The notes under the pieces were generated by a model. It was not told where the DNA came from. It worked only from the letters and a program-made list of their open reading frames with translations, and made no database searches. From a virus: a DNA stretch of 64,000 nt. Each line of letters starts with the position of its first letter. Position 1 is the stretch's first letter. Location of the stretch: the UHGV virus genome UHGV-0098755, one strand, 5' to 3'. Made by a program: the position numbers and the translations under genes. Below are positions 2,779-54,113 of this stretch, piece after piece.

Positions 2779-2797
2779 GAGGGGCTTCGGCCCCTTC
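2779..2797 (+). promoter_or_regulatory. C(UUCG)G tetraloop hairpin between gene 38 Shine-Dalgarno and AUG
   Basis: GGGGC-TTCG-GCCCC at 2781-2794; SD GGAG at 2776-2779; ATG at 2803, i.e. 23 nt spacing unless hairpin loops out. Confidence 0.6.
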
Positions 2798-2802
2798 TAA
2801 AT

Positions 2803-3354
2803 ATGAAAATATATCATTATTATTTTGACACTAAAGAATTTTACAAAGAAGAAAATTACAAACCGGTTAAAGGTCTTGGTCTTCCCGCTCATTCAACAAT
2901 TAAAAAACCTTTAGAACCTAAAGAAGGATACGCAGTTGTATTTGATGAACGTATTCAGGATTGGATTTATGAAGAAGACCATCGCGGTAAACGGGCTTGG
3001 ACTTTTAATAAAGAAGAAATCTTAATAACTGACATAGGAAGCCCGGTTGGTATAACTTTTGATGAACCCGGCGAATTTGATATATGGACTGATGATGGTT
3101 GGAAAGAAGACGAAACATATAAACGCGTTTTAATTCGTAATAGAAAAATTGAAGAATTATATAAAGAATTCCAAGTATTGAATAATATGATCGAAGCTTC
3201 AGTTGCAAATAAAAAGGAAAAATTCTATTATCAAAACCTTAAACGGTTCTTTGCTCTTTTAGAAAAGCATGAGCATCTAGGTGGTGAATTTCCTAAATGG
3301 CCTGAAAAAGAACGGAAGCCTTGGTATAAGCGTTTATTCAGGAATTACGTATAA
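2803..3354 (+). CDS. 38: Tail fibre assembly chaperone gp38 (T4-type, 183 aa)
   Basis: 183-aa ORF directly after gene 37; N-terminus MKIYHYYFDTKEFYKEENYKPVKG as I recall for T4 gp38. Confidence 0.85.
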   Translation: MKIYHYYFDTKEFYKEENYKPVKGLGLPAHSTIKKPLEPKEGYAVVFDERIQDWIYEEDHRGKRAWTFNKEEILITDIGSPVGITFDEPGEFDIWTDDGWKEDETYKRVLIRNRKIEELYKEFQVLNNMIEASVANKKEKFYYQNLKRFFALLEKHEHLGGEFPKWPEKERKPWYKRLFRNYV

Positions 3355-3357
3355 ATA
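3350..3357 (+). promoter_or_regulatory. Late promoter TATAAATA for holin gene
   Basis: Exact TATAAATA 19 nt upstream of ATG with AAGGAGG SD at 3363-3369. Confidence 0.6.
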
Positions 3358-3375
3358 TCCTTAAAAGGAGGGTCT

Positions 3376-4032
3376 ATGGCAGCACCTAGAATATCATTTT
3401 CGCCCTCTGATATTCTGTTTGGTGTTCTAGATCGCTTGTTCAAAGATAACGCTACCGGGAAAGTTCTTGCTTCCCGGGTAGCTGTCGTAATTCTTTTGTT
3501 TATAATGGCGATTGTTTGGTATAGGGGAGATAGTTTCTTTGAGTACTATAAGCAATCAAAGTATGAAACATACAGTGAAATTATTGAAAAGGAAAGAACT
3601 GCACGCTTTGAATCTGTCGCCCTGGAACAACTCCAGATAGTTCATATATCATCTGAGGCAGACTTTAGTGCGGTGTATTCTTTCCGCCCTAAAAACTTAA
3701 ACTATTTTGTTGATATTATAGCATACGAAGGAAGATTACCTTCAACAATAACTGAAAAATCACTTGGAGGATATCCTGTTGATAAAACTATGGATGAATA
3801 TACAGTTCATTTAAATGGACGTCACTATTATTCCAATTCAAAATTTGCTTTTTTACCAACTAAAAAGCCTACTCCCGAAATAAATTACATGTATAGTTGT
3901 CCATATTTCAATTTGGATAATATCTATGCTGGAACGATAACCATGTACTGGTATAGAAATGATCATATAAGTAATGACCGCCTTGAATCAATATGTGCTC
4001 AGGCGGCCAGAATATTAGGAAGGGCTAAATAA
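3376..4032 (+). CDS. t: Holin (218 aa)
   Basis: 218 aa, N-terminal TM segment, large periplasmic domain; length and sequence as T4 holin. Confidence 0.9.
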   Translation: MAAPRISFSPSDILFGVLDRLFKDNATGKVLASRVAVVILLFIMAIVWYRGDSFFEYYKQSKYETYSEIIEKERTARFESVALEQLQIVHISSEADFSAVYSFRPKNLNYFVDIIAYEGRLPSTITEKSLGGYPVDKTMDEYTVHLNGRHYYSNSKFAFLPTKKPTPEINYMYSCPYFNLDNIYAGTITMYWYRNDHISNDRLESICAQAARILGRAK

Positions 4033-5327: not shown

Positions 5328-5788
5328 TAGTAAAGGTCCTCAGAGTAAAGTTCTTTTTCACTACCGCCGCGTTCAATACGTACTTGTCCAGCGTAAGTTG
5401 CAATAATCATTGCTTCTTCACGTGTCCAATAATTACTATATTGGTCAATAAACCCTTGGTCATCATCACAAACTTGTTGAGTAACTAATTGGGGTTTAAC
5501 TACATCTAAAACTTCGGCCATATCTTTAGAATAATGACGAGCACCCGGAATAATAAGAGTTCGTCCATCTTTTAATTTAAAACGGTTGGCTGCACAAACA
5601 ATTCGTCGTTGATACTTTTGGTTTTCATCCCAGTATGCAGACTGCCAACAGATTTCAGGAACTTCTTTTAGAATATCTTCTTCTGTGCATTTATAACCAT
5701 GTGCTTTAAATTTTTCAACAAGACTTTCTGGAGTTTCACGAGATAAAGGAACATTCAGCATTTTTAAACGATTAATAAATGGATTCAT
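5327..5788 (-). CDS. Hypothetical protein (153 aa)
   Basis: ORF; stop overlaps next start. Confidence 0.5.
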
Positions 5789-6887: not shown

Positions 6888-7037
6888 TTACTGCATGAAT
6901 GTGATAACTATCATGATAACACGTTGAATTCCGAACGCAAGAAGACCTCCTGCTACGGCTGGAACAACGCCTAAACCCGCCAGTAAAATGCTACCAGATA
7001 CTAATGCAGCGCTTGTAATACCTATGAATGGACTCAT
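6888..7037 (-). CDS. Hydrophobic micro-protein (49 aa), start overlaps gene 52 stop
   Basis: Hand-translated MSPFIGITSAALVSGSILLAGLGVVPAVAGGLLAFGIQRVIMIVITFMQ. Confidence 0.45.
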   Translation of the reverse strand: MSPFIGITSAALVSGSILLAGLGVVPAVAGGLLAFGIQRVIMIVITFMQ

Positions 7038-8362
7038 TTGATTTCCTCTAAATCTTTGGTGTATTCAGTAACTACATCAGTAGTTTTCCAATATTCGTTT
7101 TCTTCTTTTTTAGCTTTAGCTTCTTCAGCAAGTTTCTTCGCTTCATCGGAAGTCATATGAAAAATATTCATTCCAACTAGTTTATCAACATAAGAAGAAT
7201 ACATATCGATTTTCGAAAGTTCTTCGGTCAGTTCTTTACGAGTTTTACCTTGTACAACAATTTCACCTGAAATTACTTTCTTAATGAAATGTGCCTTGGC
7301 AAAGGCTAAACGAAATGCTGATTCAGTTTCTTTGATTTTGTTATCAATTCGTTTTTGGACATAAGTTTTACGAACTTCAACAAAGTCTTTAATTAAATCA
7401 ACTACGTTATCGTAAACTTGCAGCTTTCCTTTTTCATTAATGACGGTAATATTCTGGGAACGACGCTCAATCAACCCGAAGTCTTTCATGATTTTTGCAT
7501 GGCGTTCTTCTTCGTTATCGCTCAAAGAGTATTCTTTGCGGAATTTAATTTTAAAGCCAAAACCATGCTCACCACAAGCATCATCCCACGTAATGAAGCC
7601 TTTATCTTCAAGCGGGTCTAAGATTTTACTCACATAAGTTTCACGATCATACTTATACGGAATCTCAGTGATGTGCATTTGAGTTCGTGAAGTAAACTTA
7701 TATGTTCCACGAATTTCATATTGTCCATCAATTTCAACGACTTCACCACGAAATTCTGGGAATTCTACCTTCGGTTTAGTTACTTTCTTTCCTTGAAGAG
7801 CTTGCAGTACAGCTTTCTTAACAGAAGAAACGCTATGAGGAAGAATGTAAGTTGCATAACCAGTTGCAATACCGGAAACGCCATTAAGAAGAACAGTAGG
7901 AATAACAGGCAAATAGAAAGCAGGCGGAATGTGTTCTTTATCTTGATGTACCGGAGCATATTCAGTATCTTTATATACGTTATAGAAATTTTTACTTACA
8001 CGAGCAAAAATATAACGACTTGCTGCTGCTTTTTGAACGGTACGAGAACCAAAGTTTCCTTGACCATCTAATAGAGGAAAGTTATTATTCCAAGTATTAG
8101 CCATCAAAGCACCTGCGTCTTGCGCAGAGTTTTCACCATGATGATATCCAAGGTCCGCTACACCACCTGCAATAGAAGCGAGTTTGTGAAACTTATCTTT
8201 ATTTCCTCGTGCCAAATCAAGAGCTCGAGCAATAACAAATCGTTGAACTGGCTTAAATCCATCAATCATATTTGGAATGGCACGATTTTCAACCGTGTAC
8301 ATAGCATAAGCCAATGCTTCATTATCAATGATACTTTTTAAATCGCGATTATTCAGTTGCAT
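7034..8362 (-). CDS. 52: DNA topoisomerase II medium subunit gp52 (442 aa)
   Basis: 442 aa GyrA-like cleavage subunit; synteny. Confidence 0.9.
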   Translation of the reverse strand: MQLNNRDLKSIIDNEALAYAMYTVENRAIPNMIDGFKPVQRFVIARALDLARGNKDKFHKLASIAGGVADLGYHHGENSAQDAGALMANTWNNNFPLLDGQGNFGSRTVQKAAASRYIFARVSKNFYNVYKDTEYAPVHQDKEHIPPAFYLPVIPTVLLNGVSGIATGYATYILPHSVSSVKKAVLQALQGKKVTKPKVEFPEFRGEVVEIDGQYEIRGTYKFTSRTQMHITEIPYKYDRETYVSKILDPLEDKGFITWDDACGEHGFGFKIKFRKEYSLSDNEEERHAKIMKDFGLIERRSQNITVINEKGKLQVYDNVVDLIKDFVEVRKTYVQKRIDNKIKETESAFRLAFAKAHFIKKVISGEIVVQGKTRKELTEELSKIDMYSSYVDKLVGMNIFHMTSDEAKKLAEEAKAKKEENEYWKTTDVVTEYTKDLEEIK

Positions 8363-14716: not shown

Positions 14717-14920
14717 TTAATTCATATTGCGTTTAATAACTTCAGCAACTTCTAGTAGTTCATCTTTAGTTGCAGTGTCGGATTGAATTTTATCTCTAAT
14801 ATCCTTAAAGCGGTTTTTAAACTCTTCGGCTTCTCCCATATCGAAAAAGCGTTGAATGATTCTATATTCTCGATGAACTGCTTTATCAAAAAGTTCTAAA
14901 TTTACTCTATATGATTTCAT
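14717..14920 (-). CDS. Hypothetical protein rIIA.1 (67 aa)
   Basis: ORF between 39 and rIIA. Confidence 0.55.
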
Positions 14921-14939
14921 TTCAATATCCTCATTTGCC

Positions 14940-14980
14940 CAATTAATTATACCACATCCTTGTGGTAAAGTAAACTATTG
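14940..14980 (-). promoter_or_regulatory. Early promoter GTTTAC-N-TGTGGTATAAT with palindromic spacer
   Basis: RC reads GTTTACTTTACCACAAGGATGTGGTATAAT. Confidence 0.6.
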
Positions 14981-16795
14981 GCTCATCCATTCTTTACGAA
15001 GGTCAGCATTATCTCCCATGAGCATTTCAAAAAGTTCTTTCCAATTCTCAGGAAGTTTAACAACATCATATACTGGATTTTGAATCATCTCACGATATTC
15101 AGATTTTTCCAAAGAGCCAAGTCCCTTAATATAACGGATGTTATGTTTAGGTAGAGCATCTTTGGCACTCTCATATTCAGCGACTGTATAAAACCATTCT
15201 TGTTTTTTACCGACCTGAGCGATGATTACAGGAGTTTTGACAAAGCGAATTCTTCCTTGTTCAAACAGTTCTGGCCAATTACTGAAAAATCCGAGCAGAG
15301 AAGGATAAATGCTTCCTAGACCATCGTGGTCAGCGTCAGTCATAATAGCAATATTATGATAATTCAAGTTTTCGGCTTTTTCACCAAGAACTAATCCAGT
15401 GATTGCGCAAATATCAAACAGTTCTTTGTTTTTAAGCATATCAGCATATGACATACCCCAACTGTTGAGAACTTTACCACGTAATGGATAACCACCATGA
15501 AGTTCTTTATCACGAACATCAATAAGATATCCAATAGCAGAATCACCCTCAGTCAAGAAAAGAGTAGTATCAGCATCTTTACCACAAAGATTCGCTTTGA
15601 TATGTTTATGAACCTTAGCTTTAGAAGCCTTTTTAGCTGCTTTAGTTTCTGCTGCTTTTTCTGCCGCCAATTTACGAGCTAATGCTGCTTCAATAATCGG
15701 CATCAAAATCGCTTCATTATTCAAAATAGCACGTGAAATCTTTTTAGCATCAAGTTGAATATGACTACGGATTTCACCAAAAGGAGAAGTAAGTCGTTCT
15801 TTAGTTTGAGAATCAAATCGCATGTTTTTCATATCACGAACAAACATAACGATAGTCAAACATTCTTTAACGCGTGCTTTAGTTACATCAATTTTGAACT
15901 TGCGTTTGATTTGTGGAATAAGGTCTTCACAAATATCATCCATAACACAGTCAATGTGATGGCCACCATTCTTAGTATGAATGTTATTGACGTACGTCAA
16001 CTGACGAAAACCATCCGGTGAACGACCAACCGCAATAGAACAGTTTTCTTGTTCTTGAACGATAGCATGTTCATCATATTGGCGTGCATATTTCTTAAAA
16101 TTACCCTGAACCTTTTTACCATTAAAGGTAAATTGAATATCAGGATAAACTACTGCAAGTGTCTGGAGACGATCCAGTGTAATGTCAAGATAAACTTGGG
16201 ACAACTCATTAGTTTCAAATGACATAAAATCAGGAATGAAAGTAACACGAGTTCCTTTCCATTTTCCAGGAATATCTTCCCATGATTTATTTTCCATGCC
16301 ATTTGAACAACGAACTACAATATTATTTTGACCATCACCAGTTTCACCGACAAACATCACAGAAAAAATGTTTGTCAAACTAGAACCAACACCATTCATA
16401 CCGCCAGTGACGCGTTCTTTATCATCACCGAAGTTACCACCTGCTTTTGGAATAGTCCATGCAGCAACAGGACCAGGAATTTCTTCACCGGTAGGTGTTT
16501 TAACCATAGCCTGTGGAATACCGCGACCGTTATCTTCAACTGTTACTTGATTGTTTTTAATAGTAACATTAATTTTATTTGCGAATTTAAACTTAGTACG
16601 AATACCTTCATCTACTGAGTTATCGATAATTTCATCAATAAGCTTAACAAGACCAGGTACATACTGAACACTTTCCCATTTACCAAACAGAAAGCGCTCA
16701 TGCATTTCATTAGCTGAAGAGCCAATGTACATGCCGCTACGCTTTTTGATATGTTCAATATCGCTCAGAATTTTAATTTCATTCTTAATCATCAC
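14975..16795 (-). CDS. 39: DNA topoisomerase II large (ATPase) subunit, uninterrupted gene 39 (606 aa)
   Basis: GyrB-like GHKL ATPase plus TOPRIM in one ORF; no gene 60 split. Confidence 0.85.
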   Translation of the reverse strand: MMIKNEIKILSDIEHIKKRSGMYIGSSANEMHERFLFGKWESVQYVPGLVKLIDEIIDNSVDEGIRTKFKFANKINVTIKNNQVTVEDNGRGIPQAMVKTPTGEEIPGPVAAWTIPKAGGNFGDDKERVTGGMNGVGSSLTNIFSVMFVGETGDGQNNIVVRCSNGMENKSWEDIPGKWKGTRVTFIPDFMSFETNELSQVYLDITLDRLQTLAVVYPDIQFTFNGKKVQGNFKKYARQYDEHAIVQEQENCSIAVGRSPDGFRQLTYVNNIHTKNGGHHIDCVMDDICEDLIPQIKRKFKIDVTKARVKECLTIVMFVRDMKNMRFDSQTKERLTSPFGEIRSHIQLDAKKISRAILNNEAILMPIIEAALARKLAAEKAAETKAAKKASKAKVHKHIKANLCGKDADTTLFLTEGDSAIGYLIDVRDKELHGGYPLRGKVLNSWGMSYADMLKNKELFDICAITGLVLGEKAENLNYHNIAIMTDADHDGLGSIYPSLLGFFSNWPELFEQGRIRFVKTPVIIAQVGKKQEWFYTVAEYESAKDALPKHNIRYIKGLGSLEKSEYREMIQNPVYDVVKLPENWKELFEMLMGDNADLRKEWMSQ

Positions 16796-16814: not shown

Positions 16815-16846
16815 GGAATATTATACTCCAATAATCATAAAGCTAA
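16815..16846 (-). promoter_or_regulatory. Middle promoter (MotA box AGCTTTA, 12 bp, TATAAT) for gene 39
   Basis: RC: TTTAGCTTTATGATTATTGGAGTATAAT. Confidence 0.5.
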
Positions 16847-16861
16847 AGGCCCGAAGGCCTT

Positions 16862-17131
16862 TTATTTAAAACGAATAGTCGAATCCTTGAAGAATAGTCC
16901 AGAACATACTGTTCCTTCTACTTTCTGCCCAGTAGGTCCAATAGCACGAAATCCAGTATGCTGGAAATCATTTTCAGAGCAACCGAACCAATTATATCCA
17001 GTGATTTCAATATTAGTAAAACCACTTGAAGACAAAACTTTGGTTGCATTATCAGCATCAGTACATCCTATTAAAGACACTGCTAATACTAATGCTGCAA
17101 TAGAACGATTAATATATTTCATAATTTTCAC
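16862..17131 (-). CDS. Lipoprotein (89 aa), 39.1 position
   Basis: Signal peptide with lipobox LIGC. Confidence 0.6.
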   Translation of the reverse strand: MKIMKYINRSIAALVLAVSLIGCTDADNATKVLSSSGFTNIEITGYNWFGCSENDFQHTGFRAIGPTGQKVEGTVCSGLFFKDSTIRFK

Positions 17132-17499
17132 TTAAATTTAATGGCTTGAAGAAGACTAATAACTCTCAAGCGGCTTCTTTCATCTTTAACTGTAAAGGAA
17201 AGAGGGTCACCAGATTTCATAGTGATAGTGCATTCAAAATCAAAATTTTCGGGAACTTCTTCGAAGAAGTCAAATTCTTCAGCATAAATTAGAACATTAC
17301 TCTGAAAACTGTGAAGAATTTTTCCGTCATTTCCAGATGCTGTACTAATCATCGTAACATTATGACCTTTCATATCTTCAACGATAAATTCGCTTGTAGA
17401 TATTACAGCATTAATAGAACCATTCCTATAAATAGCAGACATTAGATATTTCTTTTCTTCGCCTTCGCGAATACGATATTTCTTACCGATTTTAAACAT
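17128..17499 (-). CDS. Hypothetical protein (about 123 aa from ATG at 17499)
   Basis: ORF; track start at 17505 is GTG. Confidence 0.5.
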   Translation of the reverse strand: MFKIGKKYRIREGEEKKYLMSAIYRNGSINAVISTSEFIVEDMKGHNVTMISTASGNDGKILHSFQSNVLIYAEEFDFFEEVPENFDFECTITMKSGDPLSFTVKDERSRLRVISLLQAIKFK

Positions 17500-17501
17500 A
17501 A

Positions 17502-17678
17502 TCACCCTTTAAGTAAGTCGTAAAATCCACCATTCACATGCTTAGGAGCGGAAACTAACCGAATAGCAATCCGATGACAATCAGGACATACATCAGTATC
17601 CCTTTCAGAAATTTTCTTGATTTTTTCGTATTCTTTTGCGCAGTCTTTGGATTGACATTTATAATCATAAAGAGGCAT
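17502..17678 (-). CDS. FmdB-like zinc-ribbon micro-protein (58 aa)
   Basis: Hand-translated MPLYDYKCQSKDCAKEYEK...CPDCHRIAIRLVSAP; two Cys pairs. Confidence 0.5.
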   Translation of the reverse strand: MPLYDYKCQSKDCAKEYEKIKKISERDTDVCPDCHRIAIRLVSAPKHVNGGFYDLLKG

Positions 17679-18692: not shown

Positions 18693-19181
18693 TTATGCAT
18701 AGAGAGCATTGCTATAGTGTTTAATCCAACTTTCAGGAATGACTTTGTATGTTCCTAAAAATACCACATTGTACAGCTTAACACCATCTTCTACCCATTG
18801 ATCGGTAATGTATCCACACATAGCACGAGTATAAACAACCCTTCCATCGTCTTTGATAAAGTTAAATTCACAAGGAGCAATGAACTTAATAGCTTGACCG
18901 AGTTTCCACTTAAAGTCTACACCTACATGCGAAGTATCAATCGTTTCAATTCCTTTAGCAGGAACAGCTTTCAAAAACGCAGATTCAAGAAATTTCGCAC
19001 GAACATAGCCAAACTGGGGTTTAGACTTTCCATCTTTAGGAATGATACGCACTTTTACTTCAGAATCTTCATCTTTAACACCGTGTTTAAGCTGAATGCT
19101 TACAATTTCGACCAATTTTCCTGCTGCTTTAGAACGGGATTTATCAGATACACGAGCTAATTCACCAATATTAATAATCAT
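18693..19181 (-). CDS. motB: MotB-like protein (162 aa)
   Basis: 162 aa at T4 motB position. Confidence 0.5.
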   Translation of the reverse strand: MIINIGELARVSDKSRSKAAGKLVEIVSIQLKHGVKDEDSEVKVRIIPKDGKSKPQFGYVRAKFLESAFLKAVPAKGIETIDTSHVGVDFKWKLGQAIKFIAPCEFNFIKDDGRVVYTRAMCGYITDQWVEDGVKLYNVVFLGTYKVIPESWIKHYSNALYA

Positions 19182-19257: not shown

Positions 19258-19800
19258 TTAATTTAAAATAGCTACCACCGCACTACGAGGTACTACACTA
19301 AAATCACCTGCATGAACAACGTTCAGAAGTTCAACACCATCTTCAATCCATTGGTCTGTTACCCAACCACAGACCGAAATAAATGGAGTCTTGATAGCTA
19401 CTGCATGAGTCAAAAGGTCAGTAGGATCGCATTCTTGAAAGAGGATAAGCTCTGCTTCAAAGACTATAGTTTTAATTACTTCATCATTATCTAAGCGATG
19501 TGCTCGAATCACGTAAGCTTTATTCTTATCATACCAGTTACTTTTTGAAAAGCTTTTAACCACAAACTCGCCTTCACCAAAAGCATTAGTCAATGCTTTA
19601 TAACCCAAATTTAGTTCAGTAGTTTTAATTTCAGTTTCAACCAGTTTGTAGGTTTTGCCAATTTCGATGGTCCGAGCAGTCATAAATGTTTCCTTAATTT
19701 CTAATGGTTTAACAAGAGTGCCGTACATGCTTGCTATATCCATATCAAACGGTTTATCTACAGGATTCGGTGTGTATTCAGGATTATAATTAAATTTCAT
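19258..19800 (-). CDS. Paralogue of the adjacent MotB-like protein (180 aa)
   Basis: Shared C-terminal motif CGW(V/I)TDQW(I/V)EDGV.L.NVV. Confidence 0.5.
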   Translation of the reverse strand: MKFNYNPEYTPNPVDKPFDMDIASMYGTLVKPLEIKETFMTARTIEIGKTYKLVETEIKTTELNLGYKALTNAFGEGEFVVKSFSKSNWYDKNKAYVIRAHRLDNDEVIKTIVFEAELILFQECDPTDLLTHAVAIKTPFISVCGWVTDQWIEDGVELLNVVHAGDFSVVPRSAVVAILN

Positions 19801-27741: not shown

Positions 27742-27951
27742 TTAAATTACATGACTATTTATAATAAATTCTCGCGGAACGTTAAAATATCCAATTTTAG
27801 TTAATATAACAACATCACCATTAATAATTACCGGAGAATAATCTTCTGGAGCATTAAATTTCCAATGGGCTCTAATATTATATCCATCAGAACCAAATGC
27901 TCGACTAGCCGGTCTCCCGGCTTTTTGCCATGCGTAGAAATCAAATTTCAT
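27742..27951 (-). CDS. Hypothetical protein (69 aa) in the soc-56 interval
   Basis: ORF. Confidence 0.5.
   Translation of the reverse strand: MKFDFYAWQKAGRPASRAFGSDGYNIRAHWKFNAPEDYSPVIINGDVVILTKIGYFNVPREFIINSHVI
27755..27762 (-). promoter_or_regulatory. Late promoter TATAAATA for soc
   Basis: RC TATAAATA about 30 nt upstream of soc ATG, SD AAGGAG. Confidence 0.55.
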
Positions 27952-28142
27952 TTTGAATGCTCTATAATTAATTTTAAAGCTTCTTCACTGACAAAAATTT
28001 CGTCAGGACCTTCTATAACTTCAACCATATGAAGTTGATTAGTTAAGAGCTCACACACGAGCTCTTTGTTATAATCTTTAAATAGCTGGTCAATACGTTT
28101 CTTATGGGCTTTCTTAAGCTGACGTTTATTTAAACGAGCCAT
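27948..28142 (-). CDS. Hypothetical protein (64 aa) in the soc-56 interval
   Basis: ORF. Confidence 0.5.
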   Translation of the reverse strand: MARLNKRQLKKAHKKRIDQLFKDYNKELVCELLTNQLHMVEVIEGPDEIFVSEEALKLIIEHSK

Positions 28143-33630: not shown

Positions 33631-34786
33631 TTAACTGCTCGAGGTCAGTTTCTAAATCAGCTGCTGATTTACTTTTACTTTCTGGAGATTTAAATTTTTC
33701 AACCTTTGAGTTAATCAATTCATCAACTTCAGCTTCAACAATTTCATTACTATCAATAGCACCTAACTGATAAGCACGTTTAATAGCATCTCGGAATGGT
33801 TGATGCTTAAATAAAGGACCCCAGAATGTAGTGCAGTTGGTATCTTTTGCACGCCAAGATTTTTCTTCGCGAATCATCTCGCCGGTTTCTTCATCAAGAA
33901 ATTCACGAGCATACCAGCCATTTTTAGGTTTTACCACGAATCCTAATTCTAGAGCCATATCTAACAATCCAGAATAAGGATCGATACCACCGTCAAATTT
34001 AACATCAATAAAGAATTTACTTTTTTCTTTAACAGTACGAGATTTTTCTACATTTAGAACAAATTGATACCCCTGAAGATCAGAACCATCTTTAATCTGA
34101 CGCTTACCGATAATGAATACAGTATCAGCCGAATACATTACGCCTGTACCACCTGTCATCACGGTTTTACTAAACATTTCAATTGTTTCAATTGTATGGT
34201 TAACCGCAACACATGGAATATTTTTAATGCTAAAGTAAGGAGTAACAATACGGAATAATGACTTCAGTGATTTAGCACGAGTCATATCTGCCACAGATTT
34301 TTCATTCAAGGCATCTTCCGTTTCTTTCTTAGAAGCCATATTACCGATTGAGTCGATGAATACAATAACTTTTTCACCGCGCTCAATAGCTTCAAGCTGA
34401 TTCACCATATCAATTTTCAGCTGTTCAACTGACTGGATTGGCGTATGAATTACTCGTTCCGGGTCAACCCCCATGGATCGCAAATAAGCTGGAGTAATAC
34501 CAAATTCACTATCATAGAATAGACAAACCGCGTCAGGATATTTGTTCAAATATGCCGCAACCATAGTCAAAGACATATTTGATTTAAAGTGTTTAGAAGG
34601 CCCTGCGAAAATAGTTAAACCAGACTGCATACCGCCATCAATCGCACCAGAAATAGCAATATTAAGCATTGGAATTTTTGTACGAATTACATCCTTTTCA
34701 TTAAAGAATTTAGATGTAGTCAGTTCAGCAGTCATTTTAGAAGTGGAAGCTTTAATCAAACGGGATTTTAAATCTGCAATAGACAT
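33605..34786 (-). CDS. uvsX: UvsX recombinase (393 aa)
   Basis: RecA-fold, 393 aa. Confidence 0.9.
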   Translation of the reverse strand: MSIADLKSRLIKASTSKMTAELTTSKFFNEKDVIRTKIPMLNIAISGAIDGGMQSGLTIFAGPSKHFKSNMSLTMVAAYLNKYPDAVCLFYDSEFGITPAYLRSMGVDPERVIHTPIQSVEQLKIDMVNQLEAIERGEKVIVFIDSIGNMASKKETEDALNEKSVADMTRAKSLKSLFRIVTPYFSIKNIPCVAVNHTIETIEMFSKTVMTGGTGVMYSADTVFIIGKRQIKDGSDLQGYQFVLNVEKSRTVKEKSKFFIDVKFDGGIDPYSGLLDMALELGFVVKPKNGWYAREFLDEETGEMIREEKSWRAKDTNCTTFWGPLFKHQPFRDAIKRAYQLGAIDSNEIVEAEVDELINSKVEKFKSPESKSKSAADLETDLEQLSDMEEFNE

Positions 34787-34863
34787 TCATTTTTTCCATA
34801 GGCATCATTATATTTTCCTCACTGGTTAAAGATAGGGTAATTATAACACAATAAATTTAGGCA

Positions 34864-35712
34864 TTAATCAACTGCTATTGGATGAATAGCATTAAACTTA
34901 TGAAATGCTTCTGATTTTTCTTTACGCGAAACACACATGCGAAGAACCTTTAATGGCTCGTCTTCTTCACCCAACGATTTTCGTTTTTCAATATTAGAAG
35001 TTTTCCAACGAGCTTGCTCTGGAAACTCTCTATTGATTTGCTCAAGCGCTCTATTATGTTTAGAATTACTACGAATTGAACTACACCCGCCAGGAGCTTG
35101 TGCTTTTCCAGATACAACCAGATATTTGAACAAGGCCAAATGCGGATAACCTTGATTAATTAAATTGAGAAATGCATACATATCTTCGCATAAATCAATT
35201 TTTCCATACCCAATTTGTTCTGTCGTAAGTTTTCCAAGGTCATACCATGTATTCGTGAATCCATATGAATTTTCACGATAATTACCCCAAGATGAAGTAA
35301 TTTTAAAAATAGGTAGACGAGCATGGCCATGATAATACCCGCAATCCATGGCATCTTCAACGTATTGAATCAATTCATAGAACTGTTCACGAGTTAATTG
35401 ATTAATTTTATCTACGCAGCGACGATCATCTTTCTTTCGCATTGAACTCATACGAATAGTAGTATCATCATCAATCATCCAAATTCGTTGACCTGCATAC
35501 ATATCAGTAATTGCTTTACGAGTACCAGCAATTCCGTTAACATCATCAGGAATAGTTATAATTTTAGCTCTAGACCCATAAGCGTCATAATAAGCTTTTT
35601 CTTCGTGTTCACGTACTACAATATGAGGTTCATAATCAGTCGGAAACATATCAAGGGCAGAAACTGCCCCTACGCGTTGATAGCTTGGAATTACGAATTG
35701 AATCATTTCCAC
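34864..35712 (-). CDS. DXD-motif glycosyltransferase (282 aa) occupying the T4 beta-gt locus; possibly T2/T6-type beta-glucosyl-HMC-alpha-glucosyltransferase
   Basis: Motif QRIWMIDDDTTI; located between uvsX and 42; does not resemble the 351-aa T4 beta-gt as I recall it. Confidence 0.5.
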   Translation of the reverse strand: MEMIQFVIPSYQRVGAVSALDMFPTDYEPHIVVREHEEKAYYDAYGSRAKIITIPDDVNGIAGTRKAITDMYAGQRIWMIDDDTTIRMSSMRKKDDRRCVDKINQLTREQFYELIQYVEDAMDCGYYHGHARLPIFKITSSWGNYRENSYGFTNTWYDLGKLTTEQIGYGKIDLCEDMYAFLNLINQGYPHLALFKYLVVSGKAQAPGGCSSIRSNSKHNRALEQINREFPEQARWKTSNIEKRKSLGEEDEPLKVLRMCVSRKEKSEAFHKFNAIHPIAVD

Positions 35713-36443
35713 TCACCGTTATAATCTTTTTTCGCAATATGAGTTTCGCCAGTTTTCCACCAATGGTCAACCAAATAAAAATGGCGGGAATACACATGAA
35801 GGCTCCCGACATTCCATATAATGGAACCTGCTTTATACTGACGAGTTGAATCACCTGCATTCAAATCAGATACTAATTTATCTAGTACGTATTTTTGCCA
35901 TGCATAATCATTACGGAATCCGAAGACTACGTCATTTGAACGCATGCTTACTACTGCATTGACTTTCTTATCACGAATCAGGTACTGTACTGTATTCGTA
36001 CACATGAAATCTGACATACCATCTTTATTGTAGTCAAACTGCATGGATGGACGAGTATAAATCATGATACCACGCCGAGAATCAGGATTTTGACCAAGTT
36101 CAGCTAAACACATATCATATTGGGCATAGTTATCTTCTGACCAGATGGCCCAACCATAATTCGAGTTAATTTCGCCTTTAGAAGATGCTACCTGCTGCCA
36201 AATCTTTGGTATTTCACCTGGAATATCTTTAACAAACAGACTTTGAGACTTATACCATTCAAGTTCACGTTGAATGTATTCATCATTAAGAGCGCCAAAA
36301 ATAAAAGGTTCATCTGCTACAAATGATGCACCAATAATTTCAATAGTTTTAACACCGGTTTTATCAATTACGAAATCTTTTTCCTTTAATGCAATTCCTA
36401 AATGAAGACGGATTTCTTCAACTGTCATAGAGTCATTAATCAT
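35703..36443 (-). CDS. 42: dCMP hydroxymethylase gp42 (246 aa)
   Basis: Thymidylate-synthase-like, 246 aa. Confidence 0.9.
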   Translation of the reverse strand: MINDSMTVEEIRLHLGIALKEKDFVIDKTGVKTIEIIGASFVADEPFIFGALNDEYIQRELEWYKSQSLFVKDIPGEIPKIWQQVASSKGEINSNYGWAIWSEDNYAQYDMCLAELGQNPDSRRGIMIYTRPSMQFDYNKDGMSDFMCTNTVQYLIRDKKVNAVVSMRSNDVVFGFRNDYAWQKYVLDKLVSDLNAGDSTRQYKAGSIIWNVGSLHVYSRHFYLVDHWWKTGETHIAKKDYNGEWK

Positions 36444-46846: not shown

Positions 46847-48049
46847 TTATTTTGTAATAATGTCAAACTGCTCTTTAAAGCAGAAGCTTGAATCTTGGTG
46901 CTGATACAAAAATTCATAAGCTTTTTCACGTTCACGGTCATAAAGAGCTCGGTCAGATGACAGTTCTTTAATACGTTCAAATGTTGATTCCATGTCATTT
47001 TCATCAAACCAAACGATACCGCTATCGTGTGAAATTAATGGAGTATTATCAACACGGAATTTTAAATTTTCGCCAGTAGATTTCCAAAATACTGGAATTG
47101 TTCCACATGCACCAAGCTCGAGATGAGTGTATTCTAAAGAACGCTGTAGATATTTTTTATCTAATTTACTCAGCTGATAACCAAATCCGGATTTACTCAT
47201 GCGTTCAAGCATTTCGCTATTTACATAACGGTCAAGAATTTGCGTTGGCAAATTAGGAGCAATTTTAATTTGGTCTACTTGATGAAGACGATAATACTCG
47301 TATGGAATTCCTTTTTCTTTAATAGGAATGAACGCTGGAGAACGTTCCAGACCTTCCATAATAGTACTTAGTCCTGCAGGTTTAAGATGTTTTTCATGAA
47401 AATCAAACATCTGATAAAAGCCTTTCCATGTAGTAGTACGACCAATCCAACGGTTGATATTCATGTTAATTTCAGAAACATCTTTCCAGTAGGTTGATCG
47501 AACCTTCGCAATATCCATAGGAGGCTGAAAGTTATATACGGTCGGTGCTTCTTCAATATCATCAAACAAAGAAACAGTTTCCGGATACCATTCTTTCATT
47601 AAAACTTTATTAAAATCACCATTATCAGAATGGCTAAAAATAACATCAGCTCGACGAACAGTTTCTTCTAATCCCAAATTTCGACGCAAAGAAAGAGAAG
47701 AATGGTCATGCTGATAAACTACAACACGAACCGAAGGTTTAATGTTATCAATAATTTTTTTATAGTTATTAATCGTGTCTTCTTCAACTGAAGTAGCAGG
47801 AACTGAATTGATAACTAGAATATCACAATCATTTACCAGCTTAAGTGTTTTATCGTATTCTTTTGCCAATAAAACTGGAATTGAAAATGACTTATAATCA
47901 TGCGCACAATTACGAGTAAATGATTTATCTTTAGCATAAACCAAAGTTACTTCATGACCATTTTTAATAAACCAATCACGCTGCTCAAGAGAAAATTTAG
48001 TTACACCGCAACCTTCAAGACCTCGAGCCATAAAAATACATACTTTCAT
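46847..48049 (-). CDS. a-gt: Alpha-glucosyltransferase (400 aa)
   Basis: 400 aa at T4 a-gt position. Confidence 0.75.
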   Translation of the reverse strand: MKVCIFMARGLEGCGVTKFSLEQRDWFIKNGHEVTLVYAKDKSFTRNCAHDYKSFSIPVLLAKEYDKTLKLVNDCDILVINSVPATSVEEDTINNYKKIIDNIKPSVRVVVYQHDHSSLSLRRNLGLEETVRRADVIFSHSDNGDFNKVLMKEWYPETVSLFDDIEEAPTVYNFQPPMDIAKVRSTYWKDVSEINMNINRWIGRTTTWKGFYQMFDFHEKHLKPAGLSTIMEGLERSPAFIPIKEKGIPYEYYRLHQVDQIKIAPNLPTQILDRYVNSEMLERMSKSGFGYQLSKLDKKYLQRSLEYTHLELGACGTIPVFWKSTGENLKFRVDNTPLISHDSGIVWFDENDMESTFERIKELSSDRALYDREREKAYEFLYQHQDSSFCFKEQFDIITK

Positions 48050-48292
48050 TTAATGTCCTCATTGTTTTGGTTTATTTTACCAAAAATTTATAAAGCAATA
48101 TAGGAGCCGAGGCTCCTATCCACATAATACACCATACAGAGGCTCATTAGAGCTTCTAAATTTTATGCGCTTATATGTTATAGTTCCTTCTGCTTTAGCT
48201 TTATCATGAGACTCTTTAAAGCGTCTCATCATTTCTACTTTAGAGGAACGAATTTTATTATAATCTATTTCAGAAGTCTGGGTGTTCATCTT

Positions 48293-51828: not shown

Positions 51829-52299
51829 TTAATCATGTTTCCACACCCCATCGGTATTTGACCAAAGCCGCTGATTATCTGATCCTCGCCACAGCTTTTT
51901 GGTCGGAAGATTTTTCTCATACTTCCCATCAATAATAACATCAACATATTTAAGCATTTCTAGTTGTTTAATATCTTCAAACTTGTATCCTGTCCACAAC
52001 CAAATGCTTTTATTCGGATAAAGATTTTTTACCGTTTGAACAATGCAATGAACAACATCTCGGTTATCAGGATAAAGAGGGTCTCCTCCAGTTATAGTTA
52101 ATCCTTCTATATAATCATTATTCAAACATTCAATTAATTGTTCTAGTGTTTCACCAGTGAATGGAATACCATTTCTAGCATTCCATGTTGATTTATTATA
52201 ACACCCTTCGCATTTATGCAAACAACCTGTAACGAAAAGAACAACCCTGCAACCAGGGCCATTCACAAAATCGCAAGGATAAAATCTATCATAATTCAT
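51829..52299 (-). CDS. nrdG: Anaerobic ribonucleotide reductase activase NrdG (156 aa)
   Basis: Radical-SAM CLHKCEGC. Confidence 0.85.
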   Translation of the reverse strand: MNYDRFYPCDFVNGPGCRVVLFVTGCLHKCEGCYNKSTWNARNGIPFTGETLEQLIECLNNDYIEGLTITGGDPLYPDNRDVVHCIVQTVKNLYPNKSIWLWTGYKFEDIKQLEMLKYVDVIIDGKYEKNLPTKKLWRGSDNQRLWSNTDGVWKHD

Positions 52300-54113
52300 T
52301 GGTGTTTAACCCTATGCATGATTTCTTTATTTTTACCGAGATTAAATCCGCGTTCGTTCGGGTTTCCAAGATATCCGCATGTTCTTCTTATTGTGTTCAT
52401 CTTTTTAGGATCAGTTTCTCCACAAATAGAACAAACAAATCCGTTTTCAGTAGGAGTCATTTCATGGGTACTTCCGCATGTAAAACATTTATCTACTGGC
52501 ATATTAACACCAAAATAATCTAAATGTTGTGCAGCATAATCCCATACAGCCTCAAGACCTTTTAGGTTATTTTTCATATCAGGAAGTTCAACATAAGAAA
52601 TGTGACCACCTGTCGCAATGAAATGATATGGGGCTTCTCGAGAAATCTTTTCAAACGGAGTGATATTTTCTTCTACTGAAACGTGGAAACTATTAGTGTA
52701 CCATCCTTTATCAGTAACATCCTTTACACTTCCATATTTCTCGGTATCAAGTTTACAGAAGCGATAGCACAGGTTTTCAGCAGGAGTAGAATACAAGCTA
52801 AAAGCAAAACCGGTTCTTTCAGTCCACTGCTTAAGATGTGCATTCATTTTAGTTAAAATTTCCTGTCCAATATCACGACCGACAAGAATATTCAATTCGT
52901 GAATACCGATGTATCCTAGGGACACTGAACTTCTACCGTTTTTAAATAACTCAATTATGTCGTCATCAGGTTTAAGACGAACCCCGAATGCACCTTCTTG
53001 GTAAAGAATAGGAGCAACAGTCGCTTTAACTCCTTTTAAGGAACTAATTCTACACATCAATGCTTCAAAACATAAATCCATTCGTTCATTGAACAATTCG
53101 ATAAATTTCTGTTCATTGAATTGTGTTCCAATATAAGAATCTAACGCGATGCGAGGAAGATTCAATGTTACAACGCCAAGATTATTACGTCCATCAAGAA
53201 TTTCATTACCAGTGGAATCTTTCCATACGCCCAAGAAACTACGACAACCCATTGGAGAAACAGGAATAGATGAACCTGTGATAGCTTTATTATTCTTAAC
53301 TGAAATAATATCAGGATACATTCTTTTACTTGCACACTCTAGGGCAAGTTGCTTAATATCATAGTTCGGATCGTCTTTATAAAGATTAACACCTTCTTCA
53401 ACGAACATAACAAGCTTAGGGAAAATAGGAGTTATCCCGTCACGACCGAGACCTTTAATGCGATTTTTCAGAATTGCTTTCTGAATCATTCGTTCAGTCC
53501 AGTCAGTTCCCGTACCAAATGTAATTGTTACAAAAGGCGTTTGTCCGTTTGAACTAAAGAGAGTATTTACTTCATATTCGTAAGCTTGGAATGCATCGTA
53601 TACGTCTTTTTCTGTTTTAGATTGGGCATAATTCAATGCATCTGCGATTTGCCATTTTTCTGCATCCTCAATATGTTTTGCATAGGTGCGTTTAACATAA
53701 GGAGAAAGTACTTTATCTACATTCGCAAAAGTCGTTCCGCCATATTGATGGGAAGCAACCTGTGCAGTAATTTGTGCCATAATTGCAGTAGCAACACCGA
53801 TTGATTTAGGAGTTTCAATCTGCGCATTACCGAGCTTAAATCCGTTCTCAAGCATTCCTTTTAAATCTACTAAACAGCAATTAGTAAATGGAAGAGCAGG
53901 GGAATAATCAATATCATGGAAATGAATAATTCCGCTTTCATGCGCTTTCATAATAAAAGACGGGACCATATTTTTGGCAATGTGTTTAGACACAATACCA
54001 GCCATAAGGTCCCGTTGAGTTGGAAAAACACGAGAATCTTTATTAGCATTCTCGTTTAAAAGGTCTTTATTAGTTTTATGAATCAATCCTTCAATTTCTT
54101 TTTCAATTGTCAT
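52296..54113 (-). CDS. nrdD: Anaerobic ribonucleotide reductase NrdD (605 aa), uninterrupted
   Basis: Glycyl-radical motif RRTCGYLG near C-terminus; single ORF. Confidence 0.9.
   Translation of the reverse strand: MTIEKEIEGLIHKTNKDLLNENANKDSRVFPTQRDLMAGIVSKHIAKNMVPSFIMKAHESGIIHFHDIDYSPALPFTNCCLVDLKGMLENGFKLGNAQIETPKSIGVATAIMAQITAQVASHQYGGTTFANVDKVLSPYVKRTYAKHIEDAEKWQIADALNYAQSKTEKDVYDAFQAYEYEVNTLFSSNGQTPFVTITFGTGTDWTERMIQKAILKNRIKGLGRDGITPIFPKLVMFVEEGVNLYKDDPNYDIKQLALECASKRMYPDIISVKNNKAITGSSIPVSPMGCRSFLGVWKDSTGNEILDGRNNLGVVTLNLPRIALDSYIGTQFNEQKFIELFNERMDLCFEALMCRISSLKGVKATVAPILYQEGAFGVRLKPDDDIIELFKNGRSSVSLGYIGIHELNILVGRDIGQEILTKMNAHLKQWTERTGFAFSLYSTPAENLCYRFCKLDTEKYGSVKDVTDKGWYTNSFHVSVEENITPFEKISREAPYHFIATGGHISYVELPDMKNNLKGLEAVWDYAAQHLDYFGVNMPVDKCFTCGSTHEMTPTENGFVCSICGETDPKKMNTIRRTCGYLGNPNERGFNLGKNKEIMHRVKHQ

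Follow-up and report, generated by a model that had tools for sequence, protein, structure and literature searches.

An unsplit gene 39 for the topoisomerase II large subunit in a T-even phage genome

The gene 39 locus of the virus genome UHGV-0098755 raises the question of whether the large subunit of a phage type IIA DNA topoisomerase is encoded here in one piece, or in two as in phage T4, and whether an unsplit gene is the original state or a restored one. Topoisomerase II has two subunits in T2 and T6 and three in T4 (PMC11461880), and the unsplit form has been termed the 'parental' or 'ancestral' Topo2L (bioRxiv 10.1101/2022.08.31.505936; PMC11461880). The sequence analysed, referred to here as the window, is a 64,000 nt stretch of the genome. 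An earlier note, made from the sequence alone, had described positions 14975-16795 as a single continuous 606-aa ORF. The observation that gene 39 is unsplit in the window is confirmed. The feature is very probably gene 39 of a Tequatrovirus (T-even) phage in its intact and uninvaded form, a conventionally translated, empty (parental) allele for a 605-aa GyrB/ParE-like topoisomerase large subunit.

The minus-strand frame is open throughout from a GTG at 16795 to 14975, stop included, and is given as 606 aa in the mechanical ORF list. Its single stop codon is at the end of the frame (14975-14977). The window is ~36% GC, at which ~7% of random codons are stops, and by this arithmetic the chance of 606 open codons is ~1e-19. 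The interval 14975-16795 is free of frameshifts, bypass elements and mob ORFs. The second codon of the mechanical ORF is an ATG (16792-16790). A Shine-Dalgarno sequence, GAGGA (16803-16799), is 6 nt from this ATG and only 3 nt from the GTG, and the CDSs of T2, T6 and RB32, 1818 nt each, are all annotated from the equivalent ATG. Because the ATG is 6 nt from the GAGGA and matches the annotated start of the relatives, gene 39 is placed at 14975-16792 on the minus strand, with 605 aa and a TAG stop. The true start is almost certainly this ATG, giving 605 aa rather than 606. The in-frame GTG one codon 5' of it (16793-16795, minus strand), which is the source of the 606-aa count, is probably not a start codon. 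The continuity described in the earlier note therefore stands, while its length is one residue too long.

The gene was compared with its split counterpart in T4 (NC_000866). When aligned to gp39 plus gp60, as had been proposed, residues 1-473 are 98.5% identical to residues 1-473 of T4 gp39, and the C-terminal part is 95% identical to T4 gp60 in a 134-residue local alignment, with residues ~477-605 corresponding to gp60 ~32-160. Two parts of the T4 proteins have no counterpart in the window: the last 43 residues of gp39, which are a C-terminal extension, and the first ~30 residues of gp60, which are an N-terminal extension. At the DNA level, blastn aligns window 17124-15375 with T4 5661-3911 at 95.8% identity and window 15310-14707 with T4 2793-2190 at 97.4% identity. 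Between these flanks T4 has a 1117-bp mobile block (2794-3910), where the window has only 64 bp. The T4 block contains the 43-aa gp39 C-terminal extension, mobA (HNH), the ~30-aa gp60 N-terminal extension, a diverged homology region and the 50-nt bypass gap. This agrees with the earlier description of the T4 large subunit as split into genes 39 and 60 by a cassette carrying mobA and the 50-nt bypass. Outside the cassette, T4 and the window have the same protein and the same neighbouring genes.

The 64 bp in the window (15311-15374, minus strand), identified from the blastn breakpoints and the alignment as the empty site of the MobA cassette, are ordinary coding sequence for codons ~474-494. 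A 46 bp stretch between the flanks (15366-15321) aligns with T4 2899-2854, the cassette-borne homology region, at only 80% DNA identity, compared to 96-97% for the flanks. The Gly491 codon (15320-15322, minus strand) sits where T4 has its GGA take-off codon, but is GGT, and the next codon is CTA (Leu492). The window reads ...GAC GCT GAC CAC GAT GGT CTA GGA AGC..., which is D-A-D-H-D-G-L-G-S in frame, whereas T4 reads ...GAT CAC GAT GGA, then TAG, then the 50-nt gap ending in GGA, and then TTA GGT TCT.

The MobA element has been described as ~1.1 kb in length, inserting at Topo2L residues 466-473 (Manning & Atkins, bioRxiv 10.1101/2022.08.31.505936). It adds a ~44-aa C-terminal extension to ORF1, the N-terminal extension of ORF2 includes 'HomR', which is 67-81% identical to the parental sequence that it replaces, and the element extends to the landing codon following D490/G491 or a little beyond it (bioRxiv 10.1101/2022.08.31.505936). 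The values found here fit the published element: the breakpoint falls after codon 473, the homology region is 80% identical, and the position of the gap follows G491. These breakpoints and identities therefore indicate that the window carries the parental allele. A cassette was defined by an HNH MobA of 269-279 aa, by the extensions of a split gene, and by a ~50-nt gap after Gly491 with matched GGA take-off and landing codons and a stop or 'hungry' codon. None of MobA, the extensions with a split gene, or the coding gap is found in the window.

Searches for remnants of the cassette covered the whole of the window. The T4 take-off-to-landing bypass sequence has no match on either strand of the 64 kb when up to 3 mismatches are allowed. 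For MobA, tblastn with the intact T4T protein against the whole window gives a best E value of 3.1, and tblastn with the T4 gp39 C-terminal and gp60 N-terminal extensions against all 64 kb gives only noise (E >= 0.25). The DNA of the entire T4T cassette, searched against the window by blastn at a word size of 7, has one real match, which is the 46-bp homology stretch at 80% identity. There is no extra DNA at the MobA insertion site of the window gene 39. The check that had been suggested, for absence of the bypass codons and of mobA, thus comes out as expected, with GGT in place of the GGA take-off codon, CTA in place of TAG after it, and no MobA match.

The relatives with an unsplit gene are almost the same as the window at this locus. 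The T2 gene is identical at 1755 of 1818 nucleotides and 603 of 605 residues, the T6 gene at 1754 of 1818 and 602 of 605, and the RB32 gene, annotated as "60plus39", at 1761 of 1818 and 604 of 605, all without indels. The comparison to T2 that the earlier note had called for is therefore an end-to-end, gap-free alignment, as is that to T6 gp39. The gp39 of T2, T6 and RB32 share the 605-aa length and the catalytic residues with the window protein, and their genes likewise lie between 39.1 and rIIA.1, with a spacer of 54 bp on the downstream side. Their ~3-3.5% nucleotide divergence from the window is nearly all synonymous. Since 57 to 64 nucleotide differences result in just 1 to 3 amino-acid changes (57 to 1 for RB32), the substitution pattern indicates that gene 39 is under strong purifying selection. 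Residue 551 is N in the window and S in T2, T6, RB32 and T4. The large subunit of Escherichia phage vB_EcoM_SYGD1 (MW883059.1) has 100% amino-acid identity over all 605 residues, and the DNA of the surrounding 2.6 kb in that phage is 97.2% identical to the window, which therefore comes from a different phage. The label of a T2/T6-like state is apt, as T2 and T6 have the same 1818-nt unsplit CDS in the same map position.

Domain content is that of a complete large subunit. Pfam matches are to HATPase_c at residues 48-150 (E = 2e-9, above cut-off), to the transducer domain DNA_gyraseB (PF00204) at 251-385 (E = 1.4e-13), to Toprim at 411-493, where the match is weak at 17.5 bits against a cut-off of 23.1, and to TOPRIM_C at 520-605, which passes its cut-off. 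The GHKL (Bergerat) ATPase motifs are intact, with the N-box EIIDN at 54, G1 DNGRG at 87 and G2 GMNGVG at 131, and the QTK loop is present at residue 329. The TOPRIM motifs are uninterrupted, with EGDSA at 415 and DADHDG at 486. By motif position, the acidic motif D486-A-D488-H (15326-15337, minus strand) makes up, with the catalytic Glu of TOPRIM, E415 (codon 15548-15550, minus strand), the metal-binding E...DxD centre, and the D490 codon (15323-15325, minus strand) follows directly. E415, D486, D488 and D490 are named as the TOPRIM metal-binding residues of T6 Topo II (PMC11461880). That GHKL ATPase and TOPRIM regions are together in one ORF, as the earlier note stated, is evident from both the domains and the motifs. 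Residues 1-605 align to 1-605 of the T6 gp39 cryo-EM chain 8YLU_C at 1384 bits, and T6 structures are available as PDB 8YLU, 8YO1, 8YO5, 8YO7, 8YOD and 8YON. The gene 39 product also matches human TOP2A/TOP2B, yeast Top2, ParE and GyrB in a single stretch.

The partner subunit is present in the window as gene 52 (7034-8362, minus strand), which encodes a GyrA/ParC-like protein of 442 aa (Pfam DNA_topoisoIV PF00521, E = 7e-77) with the catalytic Arg-Tyr at residues 116-117. Relaxation activity has been measured for T6 gp39 (PMC11461880). Because the protein is near-identical to the solved and assayed T6 enzyme, gp39 and gp52 would be expected to form a two-subunit A2B2 ATP-dependent relaxing topoisomerase, as in T2 and T6. 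Both the assembly with gp52 and the ATP-dependent relaxation are predicted from the 602/605 identity to T6 gp39. In such an enzyme, the GHKL domain would bind and hydrolyse ATP, hydrolysis would be coupled to TOPRIM through the transducer domain and its QTK loop, and the TOPRIM metal site of E415/D486/D488 would, with the gp52 tyrosine, cut and reseal the DNA. Translation of gene 39 would be conventional, with no ribosomal bypass.

A difference from T4 that is separate from the cassette is found just before the QTK loop. Codons 326-328 (15809-15817) are F-D-S (TTT GAT TCT) in the window, T2, T6 and RB32, and are L-I-R (TTG ATT CGT) in the T4 reference, which amounts to a -1/+1 compensating frameshift pair over three codons. 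The L-I-R of T4 is either a real peculiarity of that phage or an old sequencing error.

Downstream, the neighbour of gene 39 is rIIA.1 (14717-14920, minus strand), encoding 67 aa (Pfam T4_RIIA1, E = 2.2e-33). The spacer between the gene 39 stop at 14975-14977 and the rIIA.1 ATG at 14920 is 54 bp (14921-14974, minus strand), close to the ~55 bp estimated previously. The interval between T4 gene 60 and rIIA.1 is also 54 bp (2404-2457). A promoter-like site (TTTACT, 17 nt, TG-TATAAT, 14974-14946) and the rIIA.1 ribosome-binding site take up this spacer, so that there is no room for another gene. Upstream of gene 39, at 16820-16860 on the minus strand, a GGCC-TTCG-GGCC hairpin comes right after the 39.1 stop and is followed by AGCTTTA, 13 nt and TATAAT. 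This arrangement resembles a T4 terminator with a MotA-type middle promoter after it, and was not flagged by the consensus promoter scan. The scan for promoters and terminators found 9 sites, with 10.2 expected from shuffled sequence. As there is no excess over shuffled sequence, the spacer promoter-like site and the upstream hairpin with its TATAAT are leads only.

Several genes further upstream differ from T4. Gene 39.1 (16862-17122, minus strand) is intact and encodes 86 aa; its product has an N-terminus resembling a signal peptide, together with a lipobox-like L-I-G-C (MKYINRSIAALVLAVSLIGC...). In T4 39.1 (5398-5661) the N-terminal part is put out of frame by a 1-nt insertion, GATTAATG compared to GATAATG, and the Cys is lost as well (LINS), which accounts for the annotation of the T4 gene as an ORF truncated to 65 aa. 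The T4 form of 39.1 may result from decay of a lipoprotein gene or from a sequencing error. Between 39.1 and 39.2 the window has a 125-aa ORF (17128-17505, minus strand) with no T4 counterpart, at a 372-bp gap in the alignment. It is present in RB32 and T6, the RB32 copy being annotated as 'similar to RB69ORF005c', and it belongs to PHROG 622 (unknown function) and is weakly similar to a goF-labelled family (E = 3e-7). The place of T4 motB is occupied by a 162-aa ORF (18693-19181, minus strand), with an adjacent 180-aa ORF (19258-19800, minus strand), and the interval in this region is 444 bp in the window versus 341 bp in T4. The two ORFs share a similar C-terminal segment (…TDQW[VI]EDGV.L.NVV…). 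The 180-aa ORF is in PHROG 2333 and its C-terminus matches a MotB-like transcriptional regulator family (E = 1.5e-16).

mobA is not the only homing-endonuclease gene of T4 that the window lacks. Aligned to T4 1-50,000 by blastn, the window is syntenic from rIIA onward, and every T4 homing-endonuclease gene of that interval is absent: mobA, segF, segA, mobB, mobC and I-TevII. In addition to the 1117 bp at mobA, for which the window has 64 bp, the T4 spans that are absent are 659 bp at segF, where the window has 378 bp with two small ORFs (27764-28141); 1941 bp at segA and β-gt, where it has 946 bp (34775-35720); 861 bp at mobB, where it has 24 bp (48041-48064); 601 bp at mobC, where it has nothing (~52279-52299); and 1035 bp for the nrdD group I intron with I-TevII, where it has 2 bp (53576-53577). 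Gene 61.2 of T4 is also absent from the window. The two ORFs in place of segF (69 and 64 aa) belong to PHROG families labelled head protein and virion structural protein. In place of T4 segA and β-gt, between uvsX and gene 42, there is a 282-aa ORF (34864-35712, minus strand) that matches PHROG 842, beta-glucosyl-HMC-alpha-glucosyltransferase (E = 2e-89). This is the T2/T6-type enzyme, and DNA modification in the phage probably follows the T2/T6 pattern and not that of T4. The 'T2/T6-like' label therefore fits the wider region as well, since a glucosyltransferase of T2/T6 type replaces segA and β-gt.

The unsplit gene is common. Proteins at least 99% identical to that of the window are encoded in 443 phage records, and 501 records match the gene 39 locus at >=90% DNA identity, while the T4-type cassette was found by megablast in 43 phage records. 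When 40 records were sampled evenly down 1951 tblastn hits, from 100% to ~30% identity, 38 of them matched in one piece. The other two are Salmonella phage Manna and Proteus phage PM2, the latter being annotated with endonucleases under the gene 39 match. A continuous gene is the rule across this T4-like phage family and beyond, and this supports 'ancestral' as a description of the architecture. For the architecture of the gene, the earlier suggestion of an ancestral state is thus well supported, both by this distribution and by the term used in the literature.

The same architecture would be seen if an ancestor of the phage had carried the mobA/bypass cassette and lost it precisely, through recombination with a cassette-free relative, making the unsplit state a derived one here. 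In favour of this, Tequatroviruses are highly mosaic, and the best 24-kb match of the window to any record is ~95-96% identical and in 3-7 pieces, so that none of the records in the phage collection is the same phage. Aeromonas phages provide documented cases of 'hit and run' loss of MobA (bioRxiv 10.1101/2022.08.31.505936); unlike those cases, however, the window has no scar in the form of remnants of the C- and N-terminal extensions. The codons GAC486 and CAC489, which are GAT and CAT in T2, T6 and RB32 and are the sole differences from those phages in the DADHDG-coding stretch, do match the homology region carried by the T4 cassette, but these are two synonymous transitions and could easily be due to chance. 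The 46-bp target stretch as a whole is of the parental type: its sequence is close to identical in T2, T6 and RB32, and only 80% identical to the T4 homology region. That segF, segA, mobB, mobC and I-TevII are missing too is explained more simply by a lineage poor in homing endonucleases. Restoration is for these reasons considered unlikely. A clean replacement of the cassette would leave no trace, and sequence alone cannot separate a gene that was never invaded from one that was restored; restoration, if true, would change nothing about the identity or role of gene 39. An interruption of another kind, by an intein, a group I intron or another homing endonuclease, or decay to a pseudogene, has next to no probability. 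Inteins or other endonucleases do occur in this gene in other phages (bioRxiv 10.1101/2022.08.31.505936; Proteus phage PM2), but here the product is exactly 605 aa, there are no indels against T2, T6, RB32 or the solved T6 protein, all catalytic motifs are intact, and the ratio of 57 nucleotide changes to 1 amino-acid change against RB32 reflects purifying selection. An intein, intron or pseudogene inside gene 39 was rejected on these gap-free alignments. The preferred reading is therefore that of an intact parental allele.

As a parental allele, the site in the window would be a potential MobA homing target when a cassette-bearing phage infects the same cell. Intact MobA is reported to nick T2 gene 39 in this region and to transfer the cassette in mixed infections, and the bypass insert to shield the invaded genome (bioRxiv 10.1101/2022.08.31.505936, citing earlier work). 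The window differs from T2 by four synonymous differences within 105 nt in and around the MobA target region, and because of these its sensitivity to MobA is not certain. The synonymous differences near the nick region (GCC473, GAC486 and CAC489), two of which match the T4 homology region, could be a remnant of past co-conversion or a change that reduces MobA recognition, although either is very improbable. Reduced recognition would make the site immune to MobA even though it has no bypass.

The unsplit gene 39 is an ordinary, already well-described allele. It should be annotated as one gene for a topoisomerase II large subunit of 605 aa, for which no recoding event is needed. It adds one more to the hundreds of 'parental' alleles that are the reference state for studies of the T4 mobA/bypass cassette. 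Homing endonucleases are scarce in this region of the phage genome, and in homing or marker-exclusion crosses with T4 the phage would be expected to act as the recipient rather than the donor.
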